Shown in pieces: positions 453 through 2,558 of a DNA stretch of 32,000 bases (position 1 is the first letter of the stretch; each line of letters opens with the position of its first letter). The DNA is taken from NCBI GenBank assembly GCA_023898425.1, contig CP060222.1, positions 300,001-332,000 of the forward strand, in the 5' to 3' direction. The stretch is from Candidatus Saccharimonadota bacterium (lineage in GTDB: Bacteria; Patescibacteriota; Patescibacteriia; 2-12-FULL-60-25). The notes below the pieces were generated by a model. That model was not told the origin of the DNA. It searched no databases and worked only from the letters and a program-made list of their open reading frames with translations. A program made the translations under genes and the position numbers.

Positions 453-2558
453 ATGAACAAGGCAGAAGCCAAGCTACGTGTAGAAAAACTACGTGACGCC
501 ATTAATCGCTATCGTTACGAGCAACACGTTCTCGATAAACTTAGTATTAGCGAAGGGGCTTTGGATGCCTTAAAACATGAGCTCTATACGCTTGAACAAG
601 AGTACCCTGATTTGATTACAAAAGATTCGCCAACGCAACGTGTTGCCGGAGAAGCGATGGAGGGTTTTAAAAAGGTTCGTCATGAGGTGCCGATGCGATC
701 TATCGAAGATGTTTTTTCGCGCGAAGAGGCTGACGCTTGGCTTGCTCGTTTGCAAAAACTCTCTTCAGCAGCATTTGATTTTTTTGCAGAATTAAAATTA
801 GACGGATTAGCTATTTCTATCGTTTATCAAGATGGTGAGCTCGTAGAGGCTTCTACTCGTGGCGATGGGCAGGTTGGCGAAGATGTTACGCATAATGTCC
901 GTACAGTAGACGCGGTACCTTTGGTGTTGCGCACTCCAGAGCAAAAAGAGATACAAGCCTTCATAAAAAAACATCAAGGCAATCTAGACGAAAAGCGCGT
1001 AACCGATTTTCTTCAGAAACCCCATAATCGTGGGGGCAGGGGGTCAGGTGCTGGGGGCAGGGGCTCGGGCCGTCTTGAGGTTCGTGGTGAGATTTATTTA
1101 ACGCAAAAACAATTAGAGCAAATCAATAAGTTGCAGAAACAAAGAGGGGAGCCGCTTTATGCAAATCCGCGCAATACGGCTGCGGGTACGATTCGTCAAC
1201 TGGATCCAGCTATTGTTGCCGAGCGTAAGCTCTCGTTCTTTGGTTATGCGCTCATTAGTGATATCGGCTTAACAACACATGAACAAGCTCACGAGGTATT
1301 GATGCTTTTAGGCTTTCCGCAAAATCCAGCTAATCGTTTTTGCAAAAATCTTGATGAAGTAGAAAAGCTTTTTATTGAAATTGGTAAAAAACGCGAAAAG
1401 CTTGAATATTGGATTGATGGTATTGTTGTGAATGTGAATAACGATGCGCTTTACGAATCGCTAGGCGTCGTCGGTAAAACATCACGAGCTTGTATCGCAT
1501 GGAAGTTTCCTGCCGAGCAAGTCACAACCATTGTAAAAGAGATTGAAGTCTCGGTTGGAAGAACGGGCGCTTTGACACCGGTTGCCATTATGGATCCTGT
1601 TCAAGTCGCTGGCACGACGGTTTCTCGTGCATCTTTGCATAATCAAGATGAGATCGAGCGTTTAGATGTACGTATCGGTGACACAGTTATCATCGAAAAA
1701 GCAGGGGACATTATCCCAAAGGTGATAAAAGTTCTCACCGAGCTGCGTACCGGAAAAGAAAAGCGTTTTAAGATGCCAGTACAGTGTCCAATTTGTGGCT
1801 CAAATGTTACGCGTATCGAGGGAGAAGTAGCAACGCTTTGCACCAATAAAAATTGTTTTGCTCAGGAAGTGGCGCGTATTCGACATTTTGCCTCGCGTAC
1901 GGCGGCTGATATTCGTGGACTAGGCGATAAGATTGTAGAGCAACTCGTGCAAACAGGCCTTGCTCATGAACCAGCAGAGCTTTATGAGCTGACAAAAGAT
2001 GATTTCTTAGGGCTCGAAGGCTTTGCCGAAAAATCCGCACAAAAACTTTTTGATGAGATTCAATCAAAGCGCGAGATTGTTTATGCACGATTTCTACTTT
2101 CTTTAGGGATTAGACATGTAGGCGAAGAAACAGCTCGTGATCTTGCTAAAGCTTTTAAGACTTACGAAGACTTACGGGATGCGAGCGCAGAAGCACTCGA
2201 AGAAGTCGAAGGTATTGGCGAAGTTGTCGCACAAGCGATCTTAGAATTTTTTGCAGATAAGCAAGATGCAAAACGCGCTGAACATCTTTTTGAACAAGTA
2301 ACCATACAATACCCAGCTATCGCGAAAGATGGACCATTAAGTGGTACGAGCTGGGTCATTACCGGCACAATGGAATCACTGTCACGTGATGAAGCAAAAG
2401 AAAAAATCCGAGCACTGGGAGGTGCTGTCTCAGATTCGGTTTCAAAACAAACAACCTATCTTGTAGCAGGAGAAAAAGCCGGTTCAAAATTAGAAAAAGC
2501 ACAGAAACTTGGAGTCACTGTGCTTGATGAGGAAGGGTTTTTGAAGAAGCTGGCCTAA
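453..2558 (+). CDS. ligA: NAD-dependent DNA ligase LigA
   Basis: 701-aa ORF with the KxDG adenylation motif (ELKLDGLA), LEVRGEIY, a Zn finger (CPICGSNV...CTNKNC), an HhH region and a C-terminal BRCT domain ([24 protein letters not shown]...YLVAG). A ~40-aa insertion before LEVRGE contains the G-rich repeat. Confidence 0.95.
1020..1070 (+). repeat. C-run hairpin + G-tract element, copy A (inside ligA)
   Basis: CCCCA-TAATCG-TGGGG hairpin followed by GGGGGCAGGGGG. A 21-bp internal tandem duplication repeats TGGGGGCAGGGG. There are five G-runs in total. Confidence 0.8.

Follow-up and report, generated by a model that had tools for sequence, protein, structure and literature searches.

How does a hairpin of C- and G-runs, followed by a G-rich tract, come to lie in-frame within three DNA repair genes of one small stretch of genome, and why is it read in a different codon phase from one gene to the next? 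This question is raised by ligA, uvrC and a gene for a small GIY-YIG nuclease in 32,000 nt of DNA from a Candidatus Saccharimonadota bacterium (assembly GCA_023898425.1, contig CP060222.1, positions 300,001 to 332,000 of the forward strand), the whole of which is hereafter called the window and is numbered from its first nucleotide. The answer to which we would give a probability of about 70% is that the three sites are copies of a short (~30-45 bp) dispersed repeat family of the class II triplex type, hosted by an Uhrbacteria-like lineage of the Patescibacteria, or candidate phyla radiation (CPR).

The window has a G+C content of 44.5% and a steadily positive GC skew. The 11-mer GGGGGCAGGGG is matched exactly four times, always on the + strand, compared with 0.15 times in dinucleotide shuffles (maximum 2); every match is preceded by a C-run/G-run hairpin, and the matches start at codon positions 1, 1, 3 and 2. 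A preliminary description of this DNA, made from the letters alone, had pointed to the three sites, to the excess of the 11-mer over chance and to the change of reading frame between copies, and all three observations were reproduced. The host coding sequences (CDSs) are also genuine, their identities being supported by Pfam and by homologues, the best of which come from Patescibacteria and mainly from 'Candidatus Uhrbacteria'. On the + strand, ligA (453-2558) encodes an NAD-dependent DNA ligase of 701 aa, the GIY-YIG nuclease gene (18329-18637) a protein of 102 aa and uvrC (29795-31120) a protein of 441 aa. An assembly artefact is ruled out, since the same inserts are present in independent assemblies, namely the loci L011 and L027, a metagenome-assembled genome (MAG) and JGI/ENA contigs (loci fetched from relatives are labelled here by L and a number, homologous proteins by P and a number). 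At the gathering threshold, Rfam reports only a tRNA in the window and no known RNA family over the sites.

The ligA copy (1020-1067, + strand) is a weakened copy resembling subfamily A. Its pyrimidine (Y) arm CCCCA (1020-1024), loop TAATCG and purine (R) arm TGGGGG (1031-1036) are followed by the linker CA (1037-1038), the third-strand domain GGGGG (1039-1043) and a G-rich extension holding a second GGGGGCAGGGG at 1053-1063. This extension had been taken for a 21-bp tandem duplicate, which did not survive inspection as merely 16 of 21 positions are identical and Tandem Repeats Finder gives a weak period-13 array instead. In strain L027, 99% identical in DNA over 1.4 kb, the 5' arm reads CCCCC against CCCC in the window. 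The GIY-YIG copy (18345-18391, + strand), at the N-terminus of the gene, is a long variant of subfamily A with the Y arm CCCCCAC, the loop AAGC, the R arm GTGGGGG, the linker CA and the tail GGGGGG (18365-18370), after which comes a 21-nt G-rich extension, TTCAGAAGGGGCGAGGGTAGT; the copy is translated as TPTSVGAGGFRRGEGS. The uvrC copy (30278-30320, + strand; subfamily D) is the best triplex-type motif of the window: the Y arm CCCCCTTCC (30281-30289), the loop ACAAATGTG and the R arm GGAAGGGGG (30299-30307) precede a CA linker and the reverse-Hoogsteen domain GGGGGTAGG (30310-30318), in which 9/9 triplets are allowed ones. Two relatives of these copies lie between genes. At 3138-3170 (+ strand), CCCCTTCAC-GTTTTT-GTGAAGGGG-TTC-GGGGAT offers, by direct reading of the sequence, six allowed triplets across CCCCTT/AAGGGG/GGGGAT, and the - strand of 3138-3161, a hairpin followed by TTTT, reads as the terminator of the DsbA-like gene 3170-4831. 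At 10367-10398 (+ strand), the terminator hairpin AAAATATCCCCCAC-AAAC-GTGGGGGATATTTT is devoid of third-strand tail, and its core stem-loop is identical to the GIY-YIG copy at 17 of 18 positions.

Alignment of orthologues establishes that each copy is an insertion of 36-45 nt, which relatives with 80-87% protein identity lack. In ligA, with a net gain of 42 nt relative to orthologues, codons 1023-1067 (15 aa) stand where these have a single Lys codon; the insert is shared by the window and a cluster with 99% protein identity, and absent in L001 and L002 (LigA 80-82% identical in protein), where the empty site reads AAT CCC AAA GGC AG, while two other relatives (81% protein identity) carry different hairpin-plus-G-tract inserts at the same place. 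Of the insertion of ~40 aa first proposed for LigA, only 14-15 aa (1023-1067) derive from the element, the remaining ~28 aa being a lineage-wide Uhrbacteria block. The latter (residues ~160-190, consensus PSEKEIEHFLKKHHGKLDAKRVR...), separate from the repeat, is found between NVRTV..VPL and EVRGE in most Uhrbacteria LigAs and is missing in other relatives of 659-669 aa. In uvrC, the copy is part of a 14-codon insert (gain of 42 nt) between Cys1 and Cys2 of a four-Cys region, confined to the window, to two clusters with 99% and to one with 90% protein identity, and absent in P0124-P0126 (82-87% protein identity). An insert in this loop is missing in all but 8 of the 120 listed homologues, and in six of these eight the loop holds another insert, of 4 aa in five cases and of 10 aa in one; the Q-type insert is seen in P0121-P0123 and other inserts of the same loop in P0150, P0202, P0210, P0214, P0220 and P0226. 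The GIY-YIG insert, restricted to a small clade, follows the start codon and precedes the first conserved strand: the empty site of L031 reads ATG ACA AAG AAG CCC GAA TGG, relative to which the window gains 36 nt, and the gene of L030 is likewise 36 nt longer than that of L031 at this site. A fourth pair is intergenic, as the spacer of L024 contains, at the point corresponding to window 3163/3164, a precise 45-nt subfamily-A insert with the same core, the two flanks being 91% and 83% identical in DNA to the window, whose empty site is GGGGTTCGGGG. The empty sites hold CCC or G-runs. No target-site duplication was found in the four filled/empty orthologous pairs (ligA, uvrC, GIY-YIG and intergenic). 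A miniature inverted-repeat transposable element was discarded as a candidate, given the lack of target-site duplication in these pairs and of a transposase in the annotated neighbours, within the limited sequence at hand.

Beyond the window, the family is dispersed. A 23-position pattern built from the ligA and GIY-YIG copies was run over 185,579 species-representative genomes (596 Gb), for which ~0.3 chance matches were estimated, and returned five matches on five contigs of a single, related and Uhrbacteria-like MAG ('bacterium isolate UR_AS_metabat.104', JAMIEW01), all with the identical 26-nt core CCCCACAAGCGTGGGGGCAGGGGGTT. A metagenome scan added 10 further stretches, mainly of the same population but including a copy in an M23 peptidase gene and the intergenic copy of L024. 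In the MAG and the metagenome contigs that match it, antisense copies affect NusB, at its C-terminal tail, and a membrane protein of 707 aa, in its N-terminal part; sense copies lie in the C-terminal tail of the helicase UvrD/PcrA and, as a long variant, in a large membrane protein, and a further copy lies at the N-terminus of the GIY-YIG nuclease, at the same site as in the window (L018); the M23 peptidase linker (antisense) is hit in the metagenome contig L022 only. The restriction to the sense strand, noticed in the window and true there, does not extend to relatives, where the repeat runs antisense in the genes for NusB, the 707-aa membrane protein and the M23 peptidase. Read from the sequence, the subfamily-A core of 26 nt is free of stop codons in all six frames, and it is translated as TPTSVGAGG, SPQAWGQGV and PHKRGGRG or, in antisense, as PPAPTLVG. 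That the DNA rather than a peptide is propagated, as first supposed, is borne out by the occurrence of the same core in at least four frames or orientations and in intergenic copies. About half of all copies are intergenic in these gene-dense genomes, as expected if purifying selection removes most coding insertions. The cores are absent from viral contigs in two scans, which speaks against a phage vector, and nothing specific was found in the literature on CPR repeat elements within coding sequences. In L021 (5607-5706), two motifs of subfamily-B type lie inverted and 25 nt apart, both being translated in the N-terminal linker of a 327-aa putative lipoprotein (…SLFFGKEEGGQISDTQSPFFPKEGAGDD…). 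Of note, TCAGTCG(T) precedes the hairpin in four unrelated copies of three subfamilies (L014, L016, L021 and L007) and may represent either a longer variant of the element or a preferred target; left flanks elsewhere include CCGTCGT in L022 and TCAGTCAG in L004.

What the copies have in common is an architecture in three parts rather than a sequence. On one strand, a pyrimidine arm, a loop, a purine arm, a linker of 2-4 nt (usually CA) and a tail succeed one another, the tail being a mirror image of the purine arm in which each G faces a G and each A faces an A or a T. Across the Uhrbacteria loci fetched, GGGCAGGG nearly always marks the point where the 3' arm of the hairpin joins the tail. 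The stems differ from one subfamily to the other, e.g. CCCCCAC/GTGGGGG, CCCTTCTTT/AAAGAAGGG, CCCTCTC/GAGAGGG, CCCCCTTCC/GGAAGGGGG, CCCCCTCCTC.../...GAGGAGGGGG and CCTCCTT/AAGGAGG among others, and over ~10 subfamilies the tail covaries with the stem, as in the arm-linker-tail combinations AAAGAAGGGG-CA-GGGGATGATT, GAGAGGG-CA-GGGAGAG, GGAAGGGGG-CA-GGGGGTAGG and GAGGAGGAGA-CAA-AGAGGTGGTG. Tails fit their own stems at 92 of 103 positions, which none of 20,000 tail-to-stem permutations equalled, and in the subfamilies found without the code 23 of the 28 informative positions (outside the shared G-runs) fit. Offset controls for the tail code were noisy from the G-rich extensions (4 matches vs. 11 true ones) and were replaced by the permutations, by shuffles and by a class I control. 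A strict scan (perfect Watson-Crick stem, all-purine arm, loops of 3-9 and 1-6 nt) over 216 kb of the window and relatives gave 26 class II motifs vs. 0.30 in shuffles, and 13 vs. 0.00 with stems of at least 8 nt; applied to just the window, the scan accepts the uvrC copy, which has nine triplets (0.01 in shuffles). The class I order (tail-purine-pyrimidine), of the same composition, was encountered 0 times vs. 19 for class II in 209 kb.

This arrangement is a known one. The class II intrastrand triplex motif consists of Y arm, R arm and reverse-Hoogsteen domain joined by G·G:C and A/T·A:T triplets (Holder et al., 2015, PMC4666352), and in E. coli it is represented by BoxC, i.e. the PIT element (Hoyne, Maher et al., 2000) or TM_ECO (Holder et al., 2015, PMC4666352). 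The initial opinion that no described class of element was involved must accordingly be abandoned as far as the architecture is concerned. All copies follow the ITxF order of pyrimidine arm, purine arm and reverse-Hoogsteen domain, and the ITxF triplet rule (at most one mismatch, in stems longer than 7 nt only) holds with 9/9 triplets in uvrC and with 7/7 to 10/10 in subfamilies B, C, F, G and H. ITxF calls for 6-15 nt in the stem and 1-6 nt in each loop; in the uvrC copy, the stem measures 9 nt and the first loop 9 nt, or 4 nt with two extra pairs and a bulge, and in relatives the stems range from 7 to 12 nt, the first loops from 3 to 9 nt and the second loops from 2 to 4 nt. Watson-Crick folding of the hairpins was computed at -8.6 to -11.5 kcal/mol. 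In a spacer of 520 nt 5' of uvrC in a more distant relative (L013, 9527-9985), three pyrimidine/purine hairpins stand in series, two of them being perfect class II motifs, of 9 and 10 triplets, that are each followed by TGCGAG. A separate palindrome family, (AT)CTCCCT-TTAA-AGGGAG(AT), absent from the window, occurs as pairs ~45-65 nt apart in several relatives (L002, 455-474/519-536; L004, 411-430/475-492; L017, 4806-4825/4869-4886), the pair of L017 flanking CCCCTGCC-AGG-GGCAGGGG.

Which subfamily fills a given site, moreover, varies from lineage to lineage. The ligA loop holds an A-like copy in the window, a subfamily-B copy in L004 and another type in L007, and is empty in L001 and L002, the latter being the closest relative of L004 (85% DNA identity). 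The junction 3163/3164 is a hot spot, without inserted copy in the window but filled by subfamily A in L024, by a B-like copy in L001 and by subfamily C in L007. For the second DsbA gene, the terminator site of the window has just a simple hairpin, and that of L018 and L002 a complete class II motif running on the other strand. In other words, the repeats appear to be gained or replaced as blocks of 36-45 nt at sites already holding short C- or G-runs. When single-stranded, the G-rich strand would fold to the hairpin and its tail would lie in the major groove as an antiparallel purine-motif triple helix; replication meeting such structures could spread them through template switching, whether copy-choice or microhomology-mediated, or through gene conversion among copies, an enzyme being a possible alternative mover. 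Template switching or gene conversion is suggested because target duplications are missing, C/G-run microhomology is present at the empty sites and copies replace one another at hot spots; this most likely route would also agree with the local sequence instability among strains to which TM_ECO has been tied (PMC4666352). Some intergenic copies would double as terminator hairpins, with a hairpin and TTTT at window 3138-3161 (- strand), L018 1236-1264 and L002 19265-19293. The coding copies, as passengers, would persist only if in-frame, stop-free and placed in tolerant loops or termini, where translation would yield Gly/Arg-rich linkers from sense copies and Pro-rich ones from antisense copies.

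The protein data are in line with such tolerance. In the AlphaFold model of the window UvrC (mean pLDDT, i.e. predicted local distance difference test, of 78.7), residues 163-188, which comprise most of the insert and the Cys-rich segment, fall below 50 without secondary structure; orthologues of LigA and UvrC have other indels at the same loops as the inserts, and the remaining coding copies are located at N- or C-termini or in inter-domain linkers. In the four-Cys segment of UvrC, the insert widens the first spacer from 7 to 21 residues. UvrC lacks the C-terminal helix-hairpin-helix domain, as do all close relatives (415-452 aa). Regarding the nuclease, TfoX_N and small GIY-YIG genes form a conserved pair (window 17978-18637, with the TfoX_N gene at 17978-18319 directly 5' of the nuclease gene; L030 49-686; L031 3818-4419; L029), their stop and start codons overlapping in L030 and L031, and in both the window and the MAG the repeat is inserted immediately past the GIY-YIG start codon.

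The element is better conserved than what surrounds it. Between the window and L011, uvrC is 79.8% identical in DNA and the element is the longest mismatch-free run, with 43 nt (the next has 26), several positions differing in the codons just 5' of it. Between the window and the MAG (L018), the GIY-YIG core is identical at 26/26 positions in surroundings about three quarters identical, the window copy having 21 nt more of G-rich tail. Third codon positions inside the element are invariant and flanking codons change. Decay is also seen, with a G-to-T change in the tail of L030, and one G lost and an altered linker in L029. Such conservation fits structural selection or homogenisation between copies and not free neutral drift.

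Several points weigh against copies of a triplex-type repeat carried as passengers. In the annotated neighbours and the four filled/empty pairs, there is neither transposase nor target-site duplication nor any other signature of mobility. The GIY-YIG and ligA copies offer 5 and 4-5 G·G:C triplets, respectively, which is under the ITxF minimum of 6 nt, and the TM_ECO triplex went undetected in duplex DNA and in dimethyl sulfate footprinting in vivo (PMC4666352). Three of the 11 subfamilies in the covariation test came from the scan that selects for the code, which is circular, even if the signal is still clear in the unbiased subset and in the class I control. Orthologous copies are so well conserved that functional constraint would explain them better than neutral carriage, with the decayed copies of L029 and L030 on the other side. 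Besides, the share of hosts in repair and replication is unaccounted for by passengers: of the nine distinct host genes, four have products acting on DNA (LigA, UvrC, the GIY-YIG nuclease and UvrD/PcrA). In the less biased sample of the pattern scan, repair hosts number 2-3 of 6-7, and the excess of repair genes has a p of ~0.05 to 0.006 under a rough genomic share of ~6%, on a sample of limited size whose manner of collection was in part selective. The link with repair genes, put forward from the three hosts of the window, is therefore suggestive only, as other hosts and intergenic copies exist.

In some readings, the inserts would do something for their hosts. One of these readings, which we consider rather unlikely, is a regulatory switch: in the non-template strand or the mRNA, the insert would toggle between hairpin and G-quadruplex (G4) or triplex and thereby tune transcription or translation of repair genes, the trigger being for instance supercoiling, oxidative damage of G-runs or a Pif1 helicase. 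The three window copies are indeed the sole canonical G4 motifs in the 32 kb and have its top three G4Hunter scores (2.3-2.6), the first G-run is common to hairpin and G4 (in uvrC, the four G-runs are the purine arm and its mirror), all three copies are on the coding strand of repair genes with UvrD/PcrA as another host in the MAG, orthologous copies are better conserved than their flanks, and a PIF1-family helicase gene (22571-23887) is situated 3' of the GIY-YIG copy and 5' of the uvrC copy. Pif1 helicases are able to unwind non-B DNA, G4 included, and the co-occurrence may be of relevance; in L031, a Pif1 gene is also found ~440 nt 3' of the TfoX_N/GIY-YIG pair, with one 107-aa ORF (open reading frame) on the opposite strand in between. 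Against the switch, a G4 motif (four G-runs of at least 3, loops of 1-7 or up to 12 nt) is present in the three window copies and in the ligA copy of L004, but the short subfamily-A copies of the MAG and the other copies of subfamily B have two G-runs only and cannot form an intramolecular G4, and therefore G4 does not define the family; the two-state structure proposed in the preliminary description is plausible for the window copies and no further. Besides repair proteins, the hosts include NusB, membrane proteins, a lipoprotein and the M23 peptidase, with the copy antisense in half of these, and roughly every second copy is intergenic; close relatives do without the inserts in the same genes, and the sample of repair genes is small and partly biased by collection. 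No intrinsic terminator was called at the in-CDS copies on either strand by a consensus scan, and antisense terminators, conceivable from a - strand hairpin with a T-rich tract, were rejected on this ground and on the presence of MAG copies in both orientations. A stronger version, quite unlikely in our view, would have the inserts selected as triplex and/or G4 modules on the non-template, lagging-strand-template strand of ligA, uvrC, uvrD and the GIY-YIG gene, folding when exposed by replication stalling, R-loops or damage and coupling the expression, local recombination or repair of these very repair genes to genome stress, possibly with resolution by Pif1. If true, this would amount to a structure-based feedback sensor written into coding sequence.

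Other readings put a word, a peptide or an accident of replication in the place of the repeat. In a recognition word, the core (GGGGGCAGGGGG or the 26 nt) would be a protein-binding motif spread by molecular drive, e.g. for DNA uptake or for orienting FtsK, the E. coli KOPS (FtsK-orienting) word being GGGNAGGG. The identity of the core across paralogous and orthologous copies, the presence of copies in all coding frames and as inverted structures at terminators, like DNA-uptake sequences (DUS/USS), the TfoX_N and type IV pilus genes nearby, and a 7:0 distribution of GGGNAGGG in favour of the G-rich (+) strand of the window would suit it, and DUS are reportedly biased toward genome-maintenance genes, a bias said to have been described by Davidsen in 2004. 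It is nonetheless very unlikely. The density is ~1 per 8-10 kb and not ~1 per kb, the copies were inserted rather than built by point mutation, and at least 10 subfamilies of different sequence share one architecture with covariation of tail and stem, which points to structure. A DUS-like uptake signal was excluded on density, insertion nature and subfamily diversity, and a polar word of KOPS or Chi type as well, since the strand bias over all loci is ~14:5, about the GC-skew expectation, and the 7:0 skew lies within that prediction once all loci are counted. Were the sites instead local by-products, arisen independently by slippage or fold-back template switching at CCC...GG microsites, their likeness would be convergence; the CCC or G-runs of the empty sites (ligA AAT CCC AAA GGC AG; GIY-YIG AAG CCC GAA; intergenic GGGGTTCGGGG), the ligA of L007, where the host CCCCAAA is itself 5' arm and loop, the absence of target-site duplications and the resemblance of the G-rich extensions to local duplications agree with this, but cores of at least 26 nt are identical at unrelated loci of different genomes, subfamily B is nearly unchanged in four different loci or genomes, and fold-back synthesis yields inverted and not mirror repeats, leaving the tail unexplained, hence a highly improbable scenario. 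Least credible of all is selection of the peptide, with Gly/Arg-rich (RGG-like) loops favoured in DNA-binding repair proteins and nucleotide likeness as a codon by-product. While the window peptides are Gly/Arg-rich and located in loops or termini of DNA-binding proteins, and TPTSVGAGG has been retained by a small clade of GIY-YIG proteins, one and the same DNA is translated in three sense frames and, in antisense, as the Pro-rich PPAPTLVG, identical copies lie in intergenic DNA, and third codon positions are invariant in the element where flanking codons vary; the multiple frames and orientations and the intergenic copies effectively refute a peptide motif.

Two further features of the window were noted. 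A hairpin, AAAACCCCGCATAGAGCGGGGTTTT, is found on both sides (13734-13758 and 17254-17290) of the gene 13782-17258, encoding a surface protein of 1158 aa with SdrD_B, Big_13 and PG_binding domains; in the second, the stem is longer (AATAGTAAAACCCCGC...), and the pair resembles a duplicated bidirectional terminator bracketing one gene. In addition, the ORF 11841-12641 matches the Pfam family KH_NucS_shadow ('NucS shadow ORF') and overlaps ORFs on both strands within the region 11841-12705, the sole stretch of the window above 50% G+C, where the true gene may be in another frame or strand.

Among known elements, REP/REPIN (RAYT) and SPRITE-type repeats are likewise short G/C-rich hairpins, often just 3' of genes, which can serve as or beside terminators and are homogeneous within a genome. 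The present repeats have no GTAG-type head, however, whereas REPs are extragenic by definition and without mirror domain, and no RAYT/Y1 transposase is present among the Pfam-annotated genes of the fetched loci. The GC-cluster or 'byp' elements of yeast mitochondria, reportedly the subject of work by Lang and colleagues in 2014, are said to be short, G/C-rich, hairpin-forming mobile inserts in coding genes of an AT-richer genome as well; unlike the CPR inserts, which are multiples of 3, stop-free and evidently translated, they are mitochondrial and skipped by translational bypassing. Closer in their coding location are the Rickettsia palindromic elements (RPEs; Ogata et al., 2000, 2002, via PMC10969869), which are palindromic repeats in-frame in unrelated, often essential genes, selfish-looking and at surface-compatible positions, the genes staying open and presumably functional (PMC10969869). 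They differ by a size of ~100-150 bp with one conserved frame and peptide, compared with 30-45 bp, or a third of that length, in several frames and both orientations here, by the lack of any described triplex-type mirror tail and by their phylum.

In architecture, the nearest counterpart remains BoxC/PIT/TM_ECO of E. coli and other Proteobacteria, a G/C-rich multi-copy element whose sequence is found in 5409 of 5426 complete E. coli genomes, at a median of 19 places. TM_ECO, of consensus CCCTCNCCC-N3-6-GGGNGAGGG-N3-GGGNGAGGG, has 23 highly similar copies in E. coli K-12, always intergenic and some in inverted pairs, with neither promoter nor terminator activity, and its single strand forms a stable triplex in vitro by circular dichroism and nuclear magnetic resonance, while purine-motif triplexes do not form in RNA (PMC4666352). 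Both systems share the domain order on a single strand, a short second loop, stems of 7-12 nt, the triplet code including T opposite A (BoxC GGGAGAGGG-TTA-GGGTGAGGG, window uvrC GGAAGGGGG-CA-GGGGGTAGG), near-identical multiple copies without known transposase, inverted pairs (here in L021), and presence/absence and local variability among close relatives; a copy of L013, CCCTCCCTC-TCG-GAGGGAGGG-TTA-GGGAGGGTG, even has the TTA second loop of TM_ECO type A. As the TM_ECO consensus has 0 matches in the window and 32 loci, with the copy of L013 as a near approach to it, the window repeats would, by sequence, belong to the class II structural class and not to the TM_ECO sequence family. They differ further in that about half lie in-frame within protein-coding genes, whereas TM_ECO is reported as always intergenic, that the host is a CPR bacterium and not a proteobacterium or cyanobacterium, that many subfamilies with different stems and mostly a CA linker coexist, that two of the three window copies hold just 4-5 triplets, and that some intergenic copies coincide with terminator hairpins where PIT has no terminator activity. 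What is new is that the repeat resides in-frame in coding sequence, that its host is a CPR bacterium, that stem and tail covary naturally and that the same sites are occupied recurrently. BoxC/PIT/TM_ECO has been known for decades without function or mechanism of spread and has been described as strictly intergenic; here, the same architecture is met in a small-genome bacterium of the candidate phyla, repeatedly in-frame in essential repair genes, with filled and empty sites as material for understanding how such repeats move. Annotators should be aware that repeat DNA can lie behind the Gly/Arg- or Pro-rich 'linkers' of CPR proteins, and, if the bias towards repair genes is true genome-wide, a functional link between non-B DNA and bacterial genome maintenance would emerge. 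Natural covariation, the usual proof for RNA structures, is here available for a DNA triple helix, and this offers a testable case in which the triplex fold itself may be the thing maintained by evolution.

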